Positions 2,461 through 14,964 of a stretch of DNA of 64,000 nucleotides are shown here, piece by piece. Made by a program: the position numbers and the translations under genes. The notes under the pieces were generated by a model that searched no databases, had not been told where the DNA came from, and saw nothing but the letters and a program-made list of their open reading frames with translations. This DNA is from Patescibacteria group bacterium (GTDB taxonomy: Bacteria > Patescibacteriota > Minisyncoccia > UBA6257 > GWB1-50-10). The first letter of the stretch is position 1; the number at the start of each line of letters is the position of its first letter. Location of the stretch: contig JBBTQX010000003.1 in NCBI GenBank assembly GCA_038065455.1, forward strand, positions 1-64,000, written 5' to 3'.

Positions 2461-3048
2461 TTATTTTTTATTGACTATCAATTTTCCTTCCACTTTCGCG
2501 CCACCGCAGGAATCTTTGCAGTAGAATTTATATTCGCCATACGGATTGCCCTGGAACTGGAGCTTGACTAACTCCCCTTTCGCCGCCGCTTTGTAAATAC
2601 CGAAGTCGGAGAAGAAAATGTCATAACCCTTGTCCACCGCCGTGAAATTCAAATCGATCACATCGCCTTCATTCACCACGATAATATTGGGCGAGTAGTC
2701 ATTGCCGCTCGCACTGATGTCAAAATGACGGAACGCCGCGGGACCCGTCTGCACCACAGTCGTCGGCACAGCTACGCCCTTGCCCGCAGAAGTCGCACCC
2801 TCGCCCGGCGTCGCTATTTTCGTCTGAACGACTTCGCGCGTGCCACCCTGCACCGTCTGGAGAGCTTTCGCGTTTTCCGGACGCATTGAATCCTGGCCCT
2901 TCGGCGCGCCGGTTTTTGCGGTACCCGAACCCGTGCCCGTTGTGCCTATTTGCCCGCCGCGATTGGACAAACCCCACCACGCCAACCCGACCACTACGAC
3001 TGCCGCTATTACACCACCGATGATTAGATTTCTTTTATTTGGTTCCAT
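2461..3048 (-). CDS. Membrane-anchored cupredoxin-fold protein
   Basis: TM helix, G/T-rich linker, YSPNIIVVNEGDVIDLNFTAVD and GEYKFYCKDSCGG...GKLIV. Confidence 0.8.
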   Translation of the reverse strand: MEPNKRNLIIGGVIAAVVVVGLAWWGLSNRGGQIGTTGTGSGTAKTGAPKGQDSMRPENAKALQTVQGGTREVVQTKIATPGEGATSAGKGVAVPTTVVQTGPAAFRHFDISASGNDYSPNIIVVNEGDVIDLNFTAVDKGYDIFFSDFGIYKAAAKGELVKLQFQGNPYGEYKFYCKDSCGGAKVEGKLIVNKK

Positions 3049-5653: not shown

Positions 5654-6113
5654 AAATCCGAAGCACGAAATCCGAAACAAGCACAAAATTATAAATCATA
5701 AAAATTACTTTTCCACCGAATTTCTCATAATAGAACTAAGAATCATCATCAACTCCCTTGATTCAGCCAATAAACTCTTTCGTTCTTTCTCTAACAACTC
5801 ATTATTTGCGCTTATTAATGCTAACCAAAATCCGCTTTCTTTAGCCTCTTTCCTTGAGATCTTAATTCGCATAATGAAATCTTTCTTACTCAATGCTTCG
5901 TTGGCTTCTATATAATTGGCACCAATAGAACCGGATGATCTTATAAGTTGCTTACCATCTTCTATGTTTGCAATTATTTTAGACAGTTTACCGACAAAAT
6001 TTCTTATGTCTTTGGCAAATTTCAATGTTCTGTCTTCAAGGTCATACTGTTTATGATTTTGAATTTCTGACATTCTAATTTGTTTCGGATTTCGGGTTTC
6101 GTGCTTCGGATTT
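5654..6113. mobile_element. Four-helix-bundle cassette bounded by heptamer-based inverted repeats
   Basis: AAATCCGAAGCACGAAATCCGAAACAA at 5654-5680 and its reverse complement (one extra heptamer) at 6080-6113 enclose a single gene. Confidence 0.7.
5705..6073 (-). CDS. Four-helix-bundle protein (23S rRNA intervening-sequence protein family)
   Basis: YDLEDRTLKFA...QLIRSSGSIGANYIEANEALSKKDF...ISRKEAKES.FWL. Start moved to the ATG at 6073 (MSEIQ), inside the inverted repeats. Confidence 0.92.
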   Translation of the reverse strand: MSEIQNHKQYDLEDRTLKFAKDIRNFVGKLSKIIANIEDGKQLIRSSGSIGANYIEANEALSKKDFIMRIKISRKEAKESGFWLALISANNELLEKERKSLLAESRELMMILSSIMRNSVEK

Positions 6114-6657
6114 ATTTCACAATCATTGTTCCTACTTCTCCCCTTGCGGCGTCGCCGAACGTATTGCACTGGAATTTATAACTCCCCGAACTGCCGGGAG
6201 CGGTAAAAGTGATTATGCGAGTCTCGTTGGGCCCCACGCCGACATTCGCCGATGCGAGCGAGGGGTCAACGAACACAAACGAATGGCCGTGAGTGTCAGT
6301 CGAGGTCAGGCTCAAAACCACCGTTTGACCCTTGCTCACAGTGAAAGACGCCGGATTGAAAGAACCTTTTCTAATGGAAAGTTTTATCGCTGTATCCGGA
6401 ATTTTTTCCTTTGAAATCGGCAGGGACTGGCTCGGCGCTTCCGGAGTGCCGGTCACTATCTTATCGGTGCTCGTAGAATAGGCATCGGCTGGATTATATG
6501 AAACTCCTGCGGGCACCGCCGAATTTTCAGCATTTCGAGATGTCGAACCTATCGAGCCGAAGGGTAAAACAACGCCCTTCGACAGAACAATTACGACTAC
6601 GATAATACCGGCCGCCGCTCCACCAATTATCCAGAAAATTAATGATTTGTTGTTCAT
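6112..6657 (-). CDS. Membrane-anchored cupredoxin-fold protein
   Basis: FNPASFTVSKGQTVVLSLTSTDTHGHSF...GSYKFQCNTFGDAARGEVGTMIVK. His and Cys are kept; the second His and the Met positions are replaced. Confidence 0.85.
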   Translation of the reverse strand: MNNKSLIFWIIGGAAAGIIVVVIVLSKGVVLPFGSIGSTSRNAENSAVPAGVSYNPADAYSTSTDKIVTGTPEAPSQSLPISKEKIPDTAIKLSIRKGSFNPASFTVSKGQTVVLSLTSTDTHGHSFVFVDPSLASANVGVGPNETRIITFTAPGSSGSYKFQCNTFGDAARGEVGTMIVK

Positions 6658-7266: not shown

Positions 7267-10200
7267 TTATTTGATGTTCAACGGAATGCCTTTTTCGTTT
7301 GTTTCGACCTGATTCAGCCATTCGCTCGCGTCATGGCGAGGCGCAACGAGATGATAGGAAATTTCGAGATTTCGAGATTTCGAGATTTCGAGATTAGACG
7401 GTTCTCCAAATATCACAATTTGTTTTTGAGCGGGATTTATTTCATACCACGCGCGGCCGTTGAACTGCGGAGTGAGCAAGACCTCGATATCTTTCATATT
7501 CTTGCCTTCGGCGATTGTTTGCCAGAAAAGCCATAAGTCGCTGCCCTTTTCTACATCATTAAAATCAATAATATATTCGTATTTGGAATTTATTTGGGAT
7601 TTGGTGCTTGGTGCTTGTAATTTGGCTTTGCCATACACCTCCTCTTTTTGTCCGATTGTATTTGAAACATAGGTCGCATATTTCACTCCGCCGATCTGAT
7701 AAACCGGGTCGATGGTCGTCACATAAAGCTTGTTCACGCCCGAAATATCCTTGCCGTTCATATTGAGATTGCCGGACATTGAATCGCCGGTTTTTAGAAC
7801 ATATCCGCTTGTTGAGCTTGAGGTTGTAATTCCAGCATTCGTGATGGCATCGCTCACATACTGCACCGAGGCCGCGTCAGTCGAGATAGCCGGATAGCCG
7901 AGACCTATAATCTTCTGGCTACCGACATCAATGGCGGGCTGCGCGCCCGGAGTGATTACCAATTTAGCAGTGGTGGGCGTTGTCGTCCCGATGCCGACGT
8001 TGCCTCCTTGTTTAACAGTAAACCTGTTTGTAGTGCCAGCTTCATTAATTTCAAAAGCAACACCAACTAACTGATTTACTCCATACGACCAATCTACTAC
8101 ATCATCACTTCCTACAACTTCATTTACTGCAATTCCGTCTACACTATCAGTCCTCTTAAACCTCAATTTTTGACCTTGACTAGCACCTGCAATTTCCAAT
8201 TTTACATTCGGACTCACTGTCCCGATGCCGACGTTGCCGGTTCCCGCTATGGTTAATGCTTCGGTCATAGTTCCTCCTGGTCTTACACGGAAAGAAATTG
8301 GCTGATCGTTGTTCCAGTTCTCTACTTGTAACTTTGTGGAGGTTGCCACTAAATCCATAGATCCACTCGTTCCGAAATAAACATATCCCCCGTTCGCTCT
8401 AATATCACCGCTAACATCCAGCTTATAACTCGGCCCCGTCGTCCCGATGCCGACTCTATCATTCGTGGCATCAATATACATCACATTGGCGGTGGTGTTA
8501 TAGTGCTGGAATTCAAAGTTGCCCTTCGTGGAGTTGGAACCGAAGACGCCGGCCGAGACATAGGAGGCGTTGATCGTTTGAGAACCGCCGGCAAAGGCGG
8601 TGGTTTGGACGGTATTGTCGGGGAATCTGAAGCCGCCGGTTACGGAGTAGATGACGCCGTTTACGGTCAGAGGATAGCCGGGGGTGGTGGTGGCGATGCC
8701 GACGGAGCCGTTTGACAGCATTGTCACATATGCATTGCCGTTATTTGTAAACAACTGCAGATATCCGCTTGCGGATGAATTACCAATAATCGAGTTGGCA
8801 CCGCTTTGCTGTAACAATAAATTTGCGCTGTCTGTCACTAAATTCATATCTGCTGTTGCTGAATTGTATATGGACAGTTTTTGTGATGGAGTTGTTGTCG
8901 CGATACCGACGTTGCCGCTGATAAAGGTGTTGTGTGCCACAATGTCATTGCCGATGAAATTATGAGTGCCTTCAATTTCTATATCATAAACCTGTTCTTC
9001 GCCGACTTTTTCAATGGAGGAAACCTTAGCCCACACCATATCGGAGTTATCCCCAACAGGATTTGACAAGAACGCACCCGGGGAATACAGTGGGGTGAGT
9101 AACGGTACCCCGGTTCTAAAAGCCGGGGCGTTTTTTTGTTCGCCCAGCCCGATCATCGACTGAATCTTGTCAAAATATACATGCTGTCGCTGGCGCAGTT
9201 CCCATGCCATATTTTCCTCAAAACCCATAAAGAGAATTTTCTTTCGTCCTTGAAGCACGGGGGCTATGGCAGCGATATAATCGCTGTCCCCGCTTACCAC
9301 TATTACCGCATCCAACTCGGCAAGGCGCCCCATGATGTCAACCACAATCTCCGCATCCATGCTCCCCTTCTTCTTGTATGCGAGGTTTTCCTCGTCGCGG
9401 ATATACTTCAGCGATTTTGATTTTATCTCCATGAAATCACCGTATGCGCGTCGGAGTTCACGCACAAACGCCTGCGTGCGCAAGAACGCGCTGTCGCGCT
9501 TGCCCGGAATCGTAAGGTAGTAGTTCACGAATCTGACATCAAAGAGGGTCTCCCAAAACATCTTCAATTTTGCGTAATCCACGCGCCAGCCGGCATTGCG
9601 CTGGGCATAAAACATATTGGCGTCATCAATAAACACGCCGAGTTTTGGTTTGGGGACCGCGATGAAGTCGCCTTTCCGAATATCGGCTACGGTTAGCCAG
9701 CCCGCCCCTGGAATCGGGGAGGGATGACGCGGCGATCTTCCTTGAGTATTTTGCGCCAGATACGGATGCTCTGCTGTGGTGCGGATTTCTCTTCCGTCTT
9801 CGGTCTTGAGGCGATAGGTGGTTTTAACGCCCATATCCAACAAGGCGTTCACTTTGCTCCAAACAATGCGGCCGGTGGCTTCATCGAGTGAGGCAATCTC
9901 ATCTCCGGCTTGAATGTCTTTAATCGCGACCTCGTTTTCCTCTTCTATCCATTCGTCGTTCTTGCCTTTGCGTCGGCGTTTGCGGCGGAGCTTGGTATCT
10001 CCGGTCACGCACTGCCCGACAACGTGGAGAGGCGCGGCAGGAGTGGTCGTCCCGATGCCGACGTAGCCGGTACTTAACATCGTCAATTGTTCCGTTAACA
10101 CACCGCTGCCATTTCTGGCTCCAACTACAAATGCTGAATCTCCATTAGTCGCATTCACAAGTCGCGAGCCAAGCATAACGCTTGTATCATTGTCAGGCCC

Positions 10201-12027
10201 TGAAAATTTCAATAACGTGAGATTCCCGGCAGTATTATTAGTATTTGAAAGTTTTGCCACCGCCGTTGAGTTAATACTCATAGCGGCGGTTTCAGCGATA
10301 TTTTGTGAAACTTGTAATTTATTGTATGGTGCTGTTATTCCGATGCCGACGTTGCCGCTTGCTCCTAAAATCGTGAACCTATTTACCGCGTTAGCAGTAC
10401 TGTTATTTTGGCTAATGTAAAAGTCCGCGGTTTCACTGCCGGCCGCATTCTGATATGAGCGTAAATAGACTCCTCCGCGATCTCCATAAATGCCAAGATT
10501 CAACGCCGCACCATTTCCAAGACCTGCGCCGCCAGCCGCAACTCCGATAATCCGCGCAGAACCAAGATCAGAAGGTGCACGGAGAAGTGAGCTATTAAAT
10601 CCTCCAACATCAAGTTGGTATGCCGGCCCCGTCGTCCCGATGCCGACTCTATCATTCGTGGCATCAATATACATCACGTTGGCGGTGGTGTTGGAGTGCT
10701 GGAATTCGTAGTTGCCCTTGGATGAGTTGGAGCCGAAGACGCCGGCCGAGACATAGGAAGCATTAATTGTTTGAGAACCCCCAGCGAAAGCAGTGGTTTG
10801 GGTAGTGCCATCGGGGAAGCGGTAGCCGCCGGTTACGGAGTAGATGACGCCGTTTACGGTCAGAGGATAGCCGGGGGTGGTGGTGGCGATGCCGACGTTG
10901 CCGGCTTTATCTATCAACATTCTTGTTGTATTCGATACACCGGAACTATGAGTTACAAATCCAATTTGATCACTTTGACCATCAGTATCCACTTTAAAAT
11001 ATATGTTCGATGTCCCGCTTCCATCTGCAAACGAGCCACCAGCGCCATATAATCCAATATAGTGATACGCATTAGCGCCGCCAAGACTATTCAATCCCAA
11101 AGCAATATTTCCATTTACGTCTAATTTCGACAGAGGCCCCGCCGTCCCGATGCCGACGTTGCCGGTTCCCGCTATGGTTAATGCTTCGGTCATAGTTCCT
11201 CCTGGTCTTACACGGAAAGAAATTGGCTGATCGTTGTTCCAGTTCTCTACTTGTAACTTTGTGGAGGTTGCCACTAAATCCATAGATCCACTCGTTCCGA
11301 AATAAACATATCCCCCGTTCGCTCTAATATCACCGCTAACATCCAGCTTATAACTCGGCCCCGTCGTCCCGATGCCGACCGAACCGCTGAAATATCCGCC
11401 ACCGGCGACGGTGAGTGATTGGGGCAGATTGGATGTGGTCGAAGTGCCGACGGCCAAGCTCAAAGGAAAGGCGTAGTTCGCGCTCTGAAAAGTCCCGCCG
11501 CCGATATTCGAGGCGATAATGCCGCTAATATTCGTGGCGTTGCCGTAATATGAGCCGGTTGTCTTTATGTTTCCACCAACAGTAAGGCGGGCGGTAACTC
11601 CCGCGCCAGTAGAAGTGGCCTTATCGCCAATCGCCACATCGCCATATTGGTTGATATCCATCACTACGTAACCAGGGAGAGTGGCTGACTCGCGATAAAG
11701 CTGGAGATTGCCGAAGTTGCGCGCCGACCAGACATAGGTATTGCCCGAGGTGAGATTTCTTAAACTAAGCCCTGGATTCGTAGTTGAAGCGACCGTGAAA
11801 ACGTAACCAAACGTGCTTGGCCCGCTCTCAGTCGAGGTAGTGTTGAAAGTACTGACCGGCGCAGGACTAGCCGTACCGAAACCGATGTTCAAACTCGCAT
11901 CAACCTTGAAAAGGCCGCCACCCGAGCCGGGCGTCTGGCCCACCGAAGGACCGATGAAGGCTTGCGCTGAAGGCAAAATTAAAAAACTAATAACAAAAAT
12001 CGAAACAGATAAAAAGTTTTTTTTCAT
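7267..12027 (-). CDS. Large secreted GNVGIGTT-repeat fibre/adhesin-like protein containing an intein
   Basis: Signal peptide ending AQA, about 11 G(N/S/Y)VGI(G/A)TT junctions separating variable modules, and Hint-domain motifs at aa 673-1033. Confidence 0.9.
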   Translation of the reverse strand: MKKNFLSVSIFVISFLILPSAQAFIGPSVGQTPGSGGGLFKVDASLNIGFGTASPAPVSTFNTTSTESGPSTFGYVFTVASTTNPGLSLRNLTSGNTYVWSARNFGNLQLYRESATLPGYVVMDINQYGDVAIGDKATSTGAGVTARLTVGGNIKTTGSYYGNATNISGIIASNIGGGTFQSANYAFPLSLAVGTSTTSNLPQSLTVAGGGYFSGSVGIGTTGPSYKLDVSGDIRANGGYVYFGTSGSMDLVATSTKLQVENWNNDQPISFRVRPGGTMTEALTIAGTGNVGIGTAGPLSKLDVNGNIALGLNSLGGANAYHYIGLYGAGGSFADGSGTSNIYFKVDTDGQSDQIGFVTHSSGVSNTTRMLIDKAGNVGIATTTPGYPLTVNGVIYSVTGGYRFPDGTTQTTAFAGGSQTINASYVSAGVFGSNSSKGNYEFQHSNTTANVMYIDATNDRVGIGTTGPAYQLDVGGFNSSLLRAPSDLGSARIIGVAAGGAGLGNGAALNLGIYGDRGGVYLRSYQNAAGSETADFYISQNNSTANAVNRFTILGASGNVGIGITAPYNKLQVSQNIAETAAMSINSTAVAKLSNTNNTAGNLTLLKFSGPDNDTSVMLGSRLVNATNGDSAFVVGARNGSGVLTEQLTMLSTGYVGIGTTTPAAPLHVVGQCVTGDTKLRRKRRRKGKNDEWIEEENEVAIKDIQAGDEIASLDEATGRIVWSKVNALLDMGVKTTYRLKTEDGREIRTTAEHPYLAQNTQGRSPRHPSPIPGAGWLTVADIRKGDFIAVPKPKLGVFIDDANMFYAQRNAGWRVDYAKLKMFWETLFDVRFVNYYLTIPGKRDSAFLRTQAFVRELRRAYGDFMEIKSKSLKYIRDEENLAYKKKGSMDAEIVVDIMGRLAELDAVIVVSGDSDYIAAIAPVLQGRKKILFMGFEENMAWELRQRQHVYFDKIQSMIGLGEQKNAPAFRTGVPLLTPLYSPGAFLSNPVGDNSDMVWAKVSSIEKVGEEQVYDIEIEGTHNFIGNDIVAHNTFISGNVGIATTTPSQKLSIYNSATADMNLVTDSANLLLQQSGANSIIGNSSASGYLQLFTNNGNAYVTMLSNGSVGIATTTPGYPLTVNGVIYSVTGGFRFPDNTVQTTAFAGGSQTINASYVSAGVFGSNSTKGNFEFQHYNTTANVMYIDATNDRVGIGTTGPSYKLDVSGDIRANGGYVYFGTSGSMDLVATSTKLQVENWNNDQPISFRVRPGGTMTEALTIAGTGNVGIGTVSPNVKLEIAGASQGQKLRFKRTDSVDGIAVNEVVGSDDVVDWSYGVNQLVGVAFEINEAGTTNRFTVKQGGNVGIGTTTPTTAKLVITPGAQPAIDVGSQKIIGLGYPAISTDAASVQYVSDAITNAGITTSSSTSGYVLKTGDSMSGNLNMNGKDISGVNKLYVTTIDPVYQIGGVKYATYVSNTIGQKEEVYGKAKLQAPSTKSQINSKYEYIIDFNDVEKGSDLWLFWQTIAEGKNMKDIEVLLTPQFNGRAWYEINPAQKQIVIFGEPSNLEISKSRNLEISYHLVAPRHDASEWLNQVETNEKGIPLNIK
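7361..7392. repeat. Tandem octamer (ATTTCGAG)x4 inside coding sequence
   Basis: Four perfect copies, read on the minus strand as NLEISKSRNLEI. Confidence 0.9.
7581..7625. repeat. Heptamer-periodic repeat inside coding sequence
   Basis: ATTTGGAATTTATTTGGGATTTGGTGCTTGGTGCTTGTAATTTGG encodes KLQAPSTKSQINSK. Same style as the four-helix-bundle flanks. Confidence 0.7.
8219..8454. repeat. Module A, copy 2 (236 bp direct repeat of 11144-11379)
   Basis: Identical by visual comparison; bounded at both ends by GTCCCGATGCCGAC. Confidence 0.92.
8431..8704. repeat. Module B, copy 2 (274 bp imperfect repeat of 10624-10897)
   Basis: Ends identical, middle diverged mostly at synonymous sites. Confidence 0.9.
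8929..10011 (-). mobile_element. Intein (361 aa) with an inserted NYN-domain nuclease
   Basis: Block A Q/CVTGDT, block B IRTTAEHPYL, block F VYDIEIEGTHNF, block G IVAHN/T. The insert at about 9150-9642 has the NYN motifs FIDDAN, KKGSMD and SGDSDY. Confidence 0.92.
9047..9137 (+). ncRNA. Putative antisense small-RNA unit inside the intein
   Basis: TTATCCCCA (9047-9055), TTGACA (9063-9068), 17-bp spacer, TACAGT (9086-9091), then hairpin CCCCGGTT-CTAAA-AGCCGGGG and T7 (9131-9137). Confidence 0.6.
10624..10897. repeat. Module B, copy 1
   Basis: Pairs with 8431-8704; part of it also resembles the ORF at 1-331. Confidence 0.9.
11144..11379. repeat. Module A, copy 1
   Basis: Identical to 8219-8454. 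Confidence 0.92.
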
Positions 12028-12561
12028 TTACGGCAGAATGATTAATTTTCCGCTGATTATTTTTCCATTGGGACAAGAATCCCGGCAAGAAAAATCATAC
12101 GTGCCGGAATCCGAAGGCGTAAAAGTTATCTTGCCTATTTTTCCACTAGAGGCCGAAACATAAAAACCAGCCGACCGGGAAAAAATATCGAAGTTTCCGC
12201 CCGAAGCCATGAGATTTATCTCCACTACGTCGCCTTTGTTGGCGACGATTTCGGAAGGATTGTAACCCGAAACCGAAACGTTCACGTTAAAGACTTTGTA
12301 ATTCGAAACGTTACTGCCGGAAGATTTGCTCGTTATCGGGATATCCTGTGAGGGCTTAGTCAGCTCCGCATTTTTGGGAACCTCATTCGTGAAGCCGGTT
12401 TTTTCCCCGCTTTTCGGAGTCGAGGTCGCGGTAATTTCGCCGGCCTGGCCGCCCGGGGAAACCGGCCCGCCGCCATTTTTTTTCGTTAAAACCCCCACGG
12501 CTACTCCCACCAAAACCACCACTCCGAAGACAGCAATAATAGTGGCTTGTTTTCTAGTCAT
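12028..12561 (-). CDS. Membrane-anchored cupredoxin-fold protein
   Basis: TM helix, linker, YNPSEIVANKGDVVEINL...SGTYDFSCRDSCP..GKLII. Its stop abuts the ATG of the fibre gene. Confidence 0.8.
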   Translation of the reverse strand: MTRKQATIIAVFGVVVLVGVAVGVLTKKNGGGPVSPGGQAGEITATSTPKSGEKTGFTNEVPKNAELTKPSQDIPITSKSSGSNVSNYKVFNVNVSVSGYNPSEIVANKGDVVEINLMASGGNFDIFSRSAGFYVSASSGKIGKITFTPSDSGTYDFSCRDSCPNGKIISGKLIILP

Positions 12562-12600: not shown

Positions 12601-12624
12601 CCAAGCGACGTCAGACGTTGCTCA
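12601..12624. repeat. REP-like palindrome, left inverted repeat of the RAYT gene
   Basis: CCAAGCGACGTCAGACGTTGCTCA; its reverse complement matches 13385-13408 at 23 of 24 positions. Confidence 0.88.
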
Positions 12625-13329
12625 TTCAAAGGAGGAGTCCCCAATCTCATCACAATCAATTTCTTTTAGCCACTTCCTGGTATTTTCCTCAAACTGTTCT
12701 GGGCCACCCAATAGTTCTGAAAGGAGTTGCCGCTGAGTTGCCGAAGGGAAATTTCGTTTGCCGATGTAGTCTCTATAACTACTCCACCTGTAATTTTCCA
12801 AGAATCTCATTGCCTTCTTATAGTCAGTGATTTCTCTCGAGCGCCATTCGGGCATAACTAAGTCCAGCGGATTGAAATGGATGTAAAAAGGTAAATGGAG
12901 GAAATGCGCATCCCTAGTGACGGCCACGGATTTGTACCGCCCCTCAAATAAAGTCCCTTTTCTCTCATACTTTATATTGAAATATTTAGCGTAACCGCCG
13001 TTTAACTTCTTAATAAACTCGGGAATACTGCTCTCACTTTTTGATTTGATCAGTAAATGATAGTGGTTAGGCATCAAACAAAAAGCTAGCATCTCCACCA
13101 TTAATTCTTTTGGCTTATCGCTGTCCGCTATTTCCGAGCGACGTCTGACGTTACTTGAAGACTTTCTCCGCTGAAGATTAAAAATTCTAACACTCGAGTT
13201 GGCGTCGTTAAAACCGCAGAGGTCATCTATAAATCTCAGATAATCGCTGTCACCTAAGAAAATTTTTCTCTTATCAACTCCCCTGTTAAGGACGTGGTAA
13301 ATTCCGCCCCCGATCAATTTGCCCCTCAT
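12622..13329 (-). CDS. HUH Y1 transposase, REP-associated (RAYT / IS200-like Y1_Tnp)
   Basis: YHVLNRG..K..IF, AFCLMPNHYHLL (HUH), LFEGRYKS, YIHFNP and YRWSSY motifs. Confidence 0.92.
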   Translation of the reverse strand: MRGKLIGGGIYHVLNRGVDKRKIFLGDSDYLRFIDDLCGFNDANSSVRIFNLQRRKSSSNVRRRSEIADSDKPKELMVEMLAFCLMPNHYHLLIKSKSESSIPEFIKKLNGGYAKYFNIKYERKGTLFEGRYKSVAVTRDAHFLHLPFYIHFNPLDLVMPEWRSREITDYKKAMRFLENYRWSSYRDYIGKRNFPSATQRQLLSELLGGPEQFEENTRKWLKEIDCDEIGDSSFE

Positions 13330-14376: not shown

Positions 14377-14964
14377 TTAAAAATTGGTTTTTTCAAACTC
14401 GAAAATCTCAGAATCCCTAATAAGGAAGGTTTTGTTAGTTGAGGCGGTTAAGCCTTTATTAGGGTCTAAGCTAAAACCTAGATATATGCAATATACACCC
14501 CTATTCTTTACCTCTTTTATGGCAGGTTGTAAGTCCGAATCAGAACTAGCCAAAATAATATTGTTTACTTTTTTGTCACACGACCAAGTAACCATATCCA
14601 CGGCAATTTTTACATCAACACCCTTCTCTTTAAAAATCTTTATCTTTTTCCCAAGAAAACCGTCCCCAAGCTGGCCTCTTACTCTGCCGGCAAACTCAAC
14701 TTCAAATTCCTGCCTTTCAAGATGGGTTTTTAGCAAGCGCTGCTCCTGAATTAACTCTTGGGATTTTTTAAGCGTAGCCGGATCTTCTTTTATTCTTCCA
14801 AAATAGAAGATTTTCCTATCGATATTTACACCATATAAAACTTTTCCAAAAATACCCTTAAAATCGTATTCGTGCCAAATCGGCTCTTTTCTTCCATAAG
14901 ATAAAAAAACGGATTTCATTTTACGTTTAAAATTCTCTCCGTCTATCAATAAAACCGATTCCAT
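14377..14964 (-). CDS. NYN-domain (LabA/DUF88, PIN-like) protein
   Basis: LIDGEN, KEKGVDVKIAVDM and LASSDSDL motifs. Confidence 0.92.
   Translation of the reverse strand: MESVLLIDGENFKRKMKSVFLSYGRKEPIWHEYDFKGIFGKVLYGVNIDRKIFYFGRIKEDPATLKKSQELIQEQRLLKTHLERQEFEVEFAGRVRGQLGDGFLGKKIKIFKEKGVDVKIAVDMVTWSCDKKVNNIILASSDSDLQPAIKEVKNRGVYCIYLGFSLDPNKGLTASTNKTFLIRDSEIFEFEKTNF

Follow-up and report, generated by a model that had tools for sequence, protein, structure and literature searches.

The endonucleases known from inteins belong to only a few families, and the known homing endonucleases comprise the LAGLIDADG, HNH, GIY-YIG, His-Cys box, PD-(D/E)xK and EDxHD families. Toxin release by related Hint domains is known from polymorphic toxin systems, and secreted proteins may contain BIL domains. 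The bacterial NYN.COG1432 group of PIN-like domains is listed as "function unknown" in the part of the PIN-like classification paper available to us (PMC5499597). Here, we describe an element at positions 8929-10011 of the minus strand of a 64,000-nucleotide stretch of DNA, referred to as the window, from a Patescibacteria group bacterium (assembly GCA_038065455.1, contig JBBTQX010000003.1, positions 1 to 64,000). The element is almost certainly a genuine class-1 intein carrying an NYN domain as cargo, and it is inserted in the gene of a tail-fibre-like surface protein.

The element is a 361-residue uninterrupted frame with Cys as its first residue and His-Asn at its end; the codon that follows (8926-8928) encodes Thr. 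The residues required for class-1 splicing were all present, namely C1, T79-x-x-H82, D343 (within VYDIEIEG, residues 341-348), H350, H360-N361, and Thr+1. The N-terminal splicing region (intein residues 1-120; 9652-10011) contains block A (CVTGDT) and block B (T79xxH82), and the C-terminal splicing region (residues 323-361; 8929-9045) contains block F (VYDIEIEGTHNF, with D343 and H350) and block G (IVAHN); both were delimited by profiles and residue conservation. Between them lies a LabA-like NYN nuclease domain of the PIN fold (residues 123-277; 9181-9645), followed by a conserved tail and linker (residues 278-322; 9046-9180) with the motif G.(P)LL..LYS, which was taken from the consensus of a 34-sequence alignment (A1) and is common to free-standing NYN genes. 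An Arg/Lys-rich strand and its acidic partner strand (residues 7-29; 9925-9993) are a hallmark of the family, as judged from the model strands and a count over family members. All of these features are on the minus strand.

The original prediction, made from the letters alone, had placed an intein with all of these splicing residues at this position, with an NYN domain whose acidic motifs were intact where an endonuclease usually lies, and had proposed a profile scan. Its coordinates were exact, and the scan recovered both parts. In Pfam, Intein_splicing (PF14890) reached 85.9 bits (cut-off 35.8, E = 3.3e-24) in a match that spans residues 24-361 and loops out the cargo, and the NCBIfam models intein_Nterm (TIGR01445, 34.3 bits, cut-off 24.5) and intein_Cterm (TIGR01443, 30.2 bits, cut-off 15.6) also scored above their cut-offs. 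NYN (PF01936) matched residues 123-277 of the intein with 55.4 bits (E = 1.3e-14, cut-off 24.2), and with 57.7 bits at the same coordinates in a scan of the whole genome; the motifs FIDDAN (127-132), KKGSMD (214-219), and SGDSD (240-244) are present. No Pfam match to LAGLIDADG, HNH or GIY-YIG was found in the 361 residues at E <= 1, so that by this list the cargo belongs to none of these homing-endonuclease families. The remaining Pfam families at this threshold were Hint and PT-HINT, both under their own cut-offs (PT-HINT, PF07591, 18.7 bits vs 27.7). Among the PADLOC models, the LabA-like NYN model gave a weak match (26.9 bits), and the match to "HEase" was limited to the C-terminal splicing block (333-361).

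The fold was in agreement with these assignments. A single-sequence AlphaFold2 (AF2) prediction of the intein reached a predicted local distance difference test (pLDDT) score of only 33, and the model obtained with alignment A1 was used instead (pLDDT 91.3, predicted template modelling score 0.86). In this model, pLDDT was low at residues 295-315 of the tail and linker, and the Arg/Lys hairpin was formed by strands 7-15 and 21-29 (pLDDT 94-97). In a Foldseek search, the Ssp and Npu DnaB mini-inteins, which are also the closest solved relatives by sequence, matched over residues 1-361 with the cargo looped out (template modelling (TM) score 0.78-0.83 by target length, best E = 4e-10). The cargo matched the structure 2qip (TM score 0.71 by target length, E = 2.2e-8, root-mean-square deviation 3.6, 156 columns, 24% identity). 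Thus, the assignment as an intein rests on the profiles and the Hint fold, on the catalytic residues, and on an in-frame insertion with continuous host flanks, and that as an NYN domain on the profile score, the active-site residues, and the PIN-like alpha/beta fold. Judging from these sequence features, the window intein is very probably able to splice. The GC profile showed no contrast between the intein and its own host gene. Two short antisense open reading frames (ORFs) of 93-94 residues overlap the intein region (8684-8965 and 9136-9420, plus strand) and were taken as chance occurrences.

The host gene (7267-12027 including the stop codon, minus strand) was delimited from the ORF list and its translation, and it encodes a 1586-residue precursor, a tail-fibre-like surface protein with GNVGIGTT repeats. 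Its N-terminus, MKKNFLSVSIFVISFLILPSAQA followed by F, is a predicted Sec signal peptide according to our own reading of the translation (residues 1-23, ending in ...PSAQA; 11959-12027), and the hosts in loci L042 and L037 share the same kind of N-terminal start. The N-extein after the signal peptide (residues 24-672; 10012-11958) ends with GYVGIGTTTPAAPLHVVGQ, where a repeat core starts 19 residues upstream of the junction. The C-extein (residues 1034-1586; 7270-8928) starts with Thr+1 (TFISGNVGIATTTP...), and the next repeat core begins 4 residues past the junction. Cys1 of the intein is the sole Cys of the precursor. Relatives of the C-extein are labelled "tail fiber domain-containing protein" or hypothetical proteins and belong to Patescibacteria; some of them have a Peptidase_S74 domain. 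In relatives of the host, the GNVGIGTTxP cores are spaced mostly 60-100 residues apart. In the intein-free relative P0164, the arrangement at the insertion site is uninterrupted (...RLHVSGDTYLAGNLGIG...), and 23-residue repeat units likewise run on uninterrupted in the intein-free P0180. Two further claims of the original prediction are therefore borne out: the host appears to be a secreted fibre, from its signal peptide and the names of its relatives, and excision would restore the repeat pattern of the host, as seen in P0164.

The window intein is a member of a large family that occurs mainly in Patescibacteria, or the candidate phyla radiation (CPR). A search of representative proteins (1.84 billion) returned 3238 matches at E <= 1e-3, 650 at E <= 1e-10, and 94 at E <= 1e-30, and 138 intein units were parsed from the best 150 proteins of the 3238. 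The splicing ends were nearly constant: His-Asn closed 130/130 units, Thr+1 followed in 128/130, and Cys was the first residue in all 86 units with a mapped start. The intein was preceded by Gln in 55 and by His in 17 of these 86. Many of the hosts are giant proteins, and a single host may contain up to five inteins (five in P0005, three in P0003). Copies within one host have diverged, their N-terminal splicing regions being 49-87% and their cargoes 20-29% identical, and even the cargo type may differ. Thus, they are not recent duplicates. An Arg/Lys run (LRRRRR...) directly after block A, defined as at least 7 K/R in residues 7-20, was found in 75 of the 83 well-bounded units and persists in cargo-less mini-inteins; it is missing in a small subgroup (P0005, P0056, P0052, P0016, and P0152).

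The insertion site was also characteristic of the family. The flanks are constant and read ...GNVGIGTTxPxxxLHVxGQ / intein / TY[IL]xGNVGIGTT, with the upstream repeat core exactly 19 residues before the junction in 44/83 and the downstream core 4 residues after it in 26/83 of the well-bounded inteins. This spacing places the insertion at one phase of the 23-residue unit GNVGIGTTxPxxxLHVxG-Q / T-Y-I-x. One family member occupies a different host. In the 717-residue protein P0095, an NYN-intein at residues 38-378 (33% identity, +1 Ser) interrupts an ATPase of the SMC_N/RecF/RecN type within its Walker A loop, where Cys follows GPNGSGK; this loop is a classical intein niche. The NYN domain of P0095 nests among fibre-borne NYNs in the tree described below, and its insertion in an SMC/RecN-type ATPase indicates that the NYN cargo is not fibre-specific.

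The repeat cores also stood out in the metagenomes. The runs that contain the stretch are groundwater or aquifer metagenomes, and in the groundwater runs spikes of contig depth of up to about 200-fold were seen at 10001-10081, 8381-8461, and 10568-10648, which are the stretches coding for the GxVGIGTTxP cores. In bin 10001-10081, the summed contig depth was 3411 (X5) and 3254 (X6) vs 15-42 in the neighbouring bins. The spikes imply that many other contigs of the community share the repeat-core DNA at >=90% identity.

The cargoes of the homologous inteins were tabulated, as the original prediction had proposed, and clustering of the 83 well-bounded units yielded an NYN cluster, a second large class, and several small groups. 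The NYN cluster comprised 41/83 units: 35 flagged by the domain parse, the intact P0070 and P0076, and four others, namely the truncated P0003_416-693, the degenerate P0039, and the mini-inteins P0072 and P0090 (197-198 residues). In all 36 intein-borne NYN domains, including that of the window, the residues D129, N132, K215, D219, G241, D242, and D244 were kept, and the same residues were invariant in 34/34 rows of A1, free-standing NYNs included. The splicing residues of these 36 inteins were equally well conserved (C1 and H82 in 36/36, T79 in 35/36 with one T79S), and cargo identity went down to 28%, for the pair of NYN inteins in P0017. Invariance of the NYN residues across 36 copies indicates purifying selection on catalysis by the cargo.

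The second cargo class, of about 200 residues, occupied the same slot in 24/83 inteins (e.g., P0059, P0074, P0079, P0089, P0113, and P0116). It had no Pfam match in the ten proteins scanned. A diverged NYN domain was considered and rejected as its identity, because hhalign found only a 21-column Hint strand in common. Structural leads below the threshold pointed to RNase H-like nucleases (rve, DDE, and TerL nuclease; Atlas), and this cargo may be another unrecognised intein nuclease.

The NYN module also occurs outside inteins. Thirteen free-standing proteins of 176-337 residues with a Met start matched the NYN part only, and at least six of them share the tail motif G.(P)LL..LYS. In locus L044 (2594-3187, plus strand), a free-standing NYN of the intein clade forms a separate gene with intergenic spacers between two giant surface-protein genes; this record is labelled uncultured Gammaproteobacteria, and either the contig has been mis-binned or the module has a wider range of hosts. 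On a maximum-likelihood tree of 61 NYNs, intein-borne and free-standing forms interleave, and at least five changes of state are required by the branches with >=95% support in the Shimodaira-Hasegawa-like approximate likelihood-ratio test. The pair of NYN inteins in P0017 fell in separate clades. The tree was obtained by a quick method and contains some long branches; therefore, its details are provisional. The contexts of free-standing NYNs in relatives (L016, L017/L037, L019, and L020) were heterogeneous, with no clear association with a target gene. In the 654-kb source genome, eight NYN matches scored above the Pfam cut-off, seven of them outside the intein. One free-standing gene in the window (14377-14964, minus strand; 195 residues, 56.2 bits in Pfam) lies 2.4 kb upstream of the fibre gene, and its NYN is too distant from that of the intein for a direct match.

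The occurrence of the NYN-intein is sporadic and rare. The full NYN-intein was found in 0/40 genomes of the same genus, family or order, most of which contained only distant free-standing NYNs, and two of which had related intein halves. In an even sample of the phylum, it was found in 1/400 other genomes (G268, 35% identity, in a 1621-residue frame), and two more of the 400 hold related inteins in frames of 1783 and 2430 residues. These counts are lower bounds, since metagenome-assembled genomes (MAGs) often fail at assembling repeats. The orthologue of the host in the same-genus genome G004 (87-92% identity) is split into two fragments at contig ends, and its insertion site is unreadable; the genomes G002, G003, and G005 have diverged fibre genes that are all intein-free. 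There was no intein in the 120 listed relatives of the C-extein. In the phage collection no NYN-intein was detected, the sole match being an N-terminal Hint match in the terminase of Corynebacterium phage P1201.

These observations bear on how the element may work. Once the precursor has been translated, the Hint domain would cut itself out and join the flanking halves of the fibre by means of Cys1, T79xxH82, Asp343/His350, His360-Asn361, and Thr+1. The NYN module would be the nuclease behind mobility, with the function that a homing endonuclease has in other inteins, and would act on nucleic acid in the cytoplasm of the producer; its target there would presumably be the coding DNA of repeat sites that are still empty. 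Through repair of such sites with an intein-bearing copy as template, the element would reach further repeats, genes, and genomes. From comparison of sequences, a mobile intein with NYN as its putative mobility nuclease, or at least a selfish nuclease cassette, is the best reading overall, and we consider it about evenly balanced between right and wrong. Its parts differ in strength. That the intein family is a mobile element is quite likely; that NYN is the mobility nuclease may be the case, with a probability that we place a little short of even.

The family bears the population signature of a mobile selfish element, with sporadic occurrence, a fixed target, decay forms, and both free-standing and nested forms. 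A mobility nuclease would be the simplest mechanism behind the fixed target, the independent insertions, the sporadic occurrence, the decay, and the two forms of NYN. Selection on the nuclease argues for an encounter with nucleic acid, most simply in the cytoplasm of the producer. The original prediction had described the cargo as standing "instead of" a homing endonuclease. The fixed site, diverged copies, decay remnants, and sporadic spread make a role of NYN as mobility nuclease at least as likely. Structure-specific DNA nucleases, such as FEN, EXO1, and T4 RNase H, are among the members of the PIN-like superfamily according to its classification (PMC5499597). More tentatively, and with some doubt on our side, NYN could represent an unrecognised family of homing nucleases, free-standing and nested, that drives the intein radiation in CPR by acting on GNVGIGTT-coding DNA. 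Under the same tentative proposal, the element would multiply within one gene (up to five copies) and hop to sites like the SMC Walker A, and the second cargo class would be another new intein nuclease. We also speculate that the Arg-rich hairpin might retain the junction at the cytoplasmic face of the Sec channel while splicing is completed.

Several points weigh against a role of NYN in mobility. To our knowledge, the characterised NYN nucleases (MARF1, KHNYN, N4BP1, and the CRISPR-associated NYN) are all RNases, and none is a known homing endonuclease. The NYN domain has no added DNA-recognition domain; the sole candidate is the Arg-rich hairpin, which is not tied to the nuclease since it is also present in cargo-less mini-inteins. 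Interleaving of free-standing and nested forms is equally well explained by a cassette that uses the intein as a neutral landing site. The host is a Sec substrate, and splicing after export would put the nuclease outside the cell, away from the genome. Evidence of empty sites was scarce as well. No target-like site was found in the other two fibre-type ORFs of the genome, and the 120 intein-free relatives contained only three loose matches to the exact empty target. An exact 8928/10012 joint, as expected of an intein-less allele, was not among the 15 contig joints listed, a further 82 lying outside that set. The junction DNA (7 flanks on the N side and 8 on the C side) was conserved only to the extent of the protein motif, and no extra nucleotide-level signal was seen in these flanks. 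Finally, the query behind the best 150 matches contained NYN, which biases the proportions of the cargoes.

The explanation that survives best beside a mobility nuclease is that NYN is an RNase, selfish or useful (in RNA processing or turnover, or against phages), which is lodged harmlessly in the slot and plays no part in mobility; the inteins would then spread by recombination between repeated GNVGIGTT-coding DNA or by means of another nuclease. We regard this as unlikely, and several points speak for it. In the part of the PIN-like classification available to us, the NYN relatives with known activity are RNases (PMC5499597). Seven of the eight NYN matches in the 654-kb genome lie outside the intein, the two forms of the module interleave in the tree, and the PADLOC LabA-like NYN model was matched, if weakly. 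Repeat DNA that is common to many contigs of the community would offer ample homology for recombination, although this is a weak hint. On the other hand, such sporadic occurrence (0/40 relatives and 1/400 genomes of the phylum sample) would be surprising in a gene that is useful to the cell, and so would decay to remnants inside inteins that are otherwise intact. In addition, the slot also holds the unrelated second class, whose sub-threshold leads are nuclease folds, as would be expected of a slot for mobility nucleases, and the boundaries of the module are exact in both contexts, as with homing-endonuclease genes. The original prediction had left two possibilities open, a safe harbour for a selfish NYN cassette and the controlled release of an RNase during fibre maturation. 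The former fits the free-standing and interleaved module.

The latter is not supported by the data and has been weakened. In this scenario, the precursor would be exported and splicing outside the cell would free the NYN RNase as a weapon or an addiction module, which we consider quite improbable. The signal peptide of the host is compatible with it, and so are the toxin release by Hint domains and the secreted BIL domains mentioned above. The episymbiotic lifestyle of Patescibacteria is also in line with it, and since Cys1 is the only Cys of the precursor, no disulfide trap would be expected outside the cell. However, NYN is nested in the Hint fold and is not C-terminal as a polymorphic toxin would require, the fibre goes on for 553 residues beyond the intein, and the PT-HINT score stays below its cut-off. 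Constancy of Thr+1 (128/130) together with the long C-extein indicates that ligation, and not terminal release, has been selected. The same cargo also resides in the cytoplasmic ATPase P0095, and many family members have other cargo or none at the same site. Neither a translocation nor a receptor-binding part is attached to NYN, and no immunity-like small gene was evident beside the fibre gene, in a neighbourhood of cupredoxin-like genes and an IS200-like transposase gene. Thus, the SMC-hosted copy, the alternative cargoes at one site, and the nesting with a conserved Thr+1 all argue against the release of an RNase.

It is also highly improbable that the element does not splice at all, being a BIL-type or other autoproteolytic Hint domain or an inactive relic, so that the fibre is cleaved or permanently interrupted. 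Its host belongs to the class of variable secreted repeat proteins in which BIL domains are found. However, the element has the full set of class-1 catalytic residues, which the 36 NYN inteins retain (with the one T79S), Thr+1 is nearly invariant, the Intein_splicing model and both NCBIfam models scored above their cut-offs, and the nearest solved relatives are active DnaB mini-inteins. Nor, with its Thr+1 and its nested NYN, does the element fit the definition of a BIL domain, which is a Hint domain that has no nested endonuclease and does not require the +1 nucleophile of inteins.

An assembly chimera or annotation artefact, for which the repeat-rich MAG-type assembly and the broken orthologue in G004 might speak, can be dismissed in view of the continuous frame, the exact boundaries, the dozens of independent homologues with the same architecture, and the contigs of three studies that bridge both junctions with no difference. 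Contig 8890-10369 (X6, record 31) spans both junctions with 0 differences, and X5 records 21 and 22 and X11 records 3 and 6 bridge one junction each, also with 0 differences; contigs of three studies thus bridge both junctions, and the chimeric assembly that the original prediction had named as a possible refutation was not found. A joint 8704->10048 (skipping 1343 positions; X11 and X6) was considered as an intein-less allele and rejected, because it joins copies of the repeat core with 24 letters on the shorter side and lies off the intein borders. Two parts of the intein, 9083-9364 and 9590-9759, are covered by the RNA run X14; its library may contain DNA, and the coverage is no proof of transcription.

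The source genome comprises 654 kb in 10 contigs and was scored 100% complete, and its named relatives are MAGs of Patescibacteria, Paceibacterota, and Candidatus Nealsonbacteria. The neighbours of the fibre gene include genes for an IS200-like (Y1_Tnp) transposase, a 23S rRNA intervening-sequence (IVS) protein, and three cupredoxin-like proteins (12622-13329, 5705-6169, 12028-12561, 6112-6657, and 2461-3048 in a scan of the neighbourhood, all on the minus strand). By eye, a similar mix was seen in L037 (G023:C8:1-12000) of a related genome, where a free-standing NYN occurs together with fibre genes, cupredoxin-like ORFs, and an ORF resembling the IVS protein. Two further inteins are present in the source genome, L006 (G000:C9:11622-12698) and L007 (G000:C4:41758-42225). 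Reading of the translations placed the former in a gyrase B-like and the latter in a gyrase A-like ORF, and LAGLIDADG-like motifs were recognised by eye in L007.

A search of the literature, with subscription journals, supplements, and the InterPro and InBase architectures outside its scope, found no NYN or PIN domain in an intein or Hint domain, and no inteins in fibre proteins of Patescibacteria. No paper was found that combines "NYN domain" with "intein", and the words "intein", "hint", and "homing" are absent from the part of the PIN-like classification paper available to us (PMC5499597). If NYN is an intein nuclease, mobile-element biology would gain a new nuclease family, and the bacterial LabA-like NYN group would gain a testable role. 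Should NYN turn out to be no more than an RNase passenger, the family would still be an example of unrelated selfish cassettes landing in the slot that inteins have for an endonuclease. In either case, the family breaks the rule that inteins reside in cytoplasmic enzymes of replication and repair, since a repeat of secreted fibres has been colonised several times per protein, and such hosts raise the question of how splicing is coordinated with Sec export. The family is also of practical value as a set of compact, diverged, and orthogonal inteins with Thr+1 and defined flanks, and possibly as a new scaffold for site-specific nucleases.

The element may be compared with several known systems. 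With the BIL and pretoxin-HINT domains it shares a Hint-fold autoprocessing domain in variable secreted or surface proteins of bacteria, but it differs from them in its conserved Thr+1, nested nuclease, and long C-extein that continues the same repeats. The cargo resembles the LabA-like NYN proteins (PF01936, COG1432; 2qip, VPA0982) in profile, fold, and Asp/Asn motifs, whereas the NYN domain of the window is nested in an intein and has a clade-specific C-terminal tail motif. As with the LAGLIDADG, HNH, and GIY-YIG homing genes, the same module is found free-standing and nested in inteins, with identical boundaries and repeated switches of state; this likeness is one of sequences, and unlike these genes NYN belongs to a PIN-like family. 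Close counterparts are also the canonical class-1 inteins, such as PI-SceI and PI-PfuI. The element has in common with them the Hint fold, Cys1, TxxH, the Asp and His of block F, His-Asn, the +1 nucleophile, a nuclease nested between blocks B and F, a conserved host motif as target, sporadic distribution, and mini-inteins as products of decay. In contrast to them, its cargo is of the NYN/PIN fold and is neither LAGLIDADG nor HNH, its usual host is a secreted repeat fibre and not an enzyme of replication or repair, up to five copies occupy equivalent repeat positions of one host, and a conserved Arg-rich hairpin follows block A in this family. What appears to be new here is an intein with a new cargo family and a new class of host, which has colonised a protein repeat in multiple copies.

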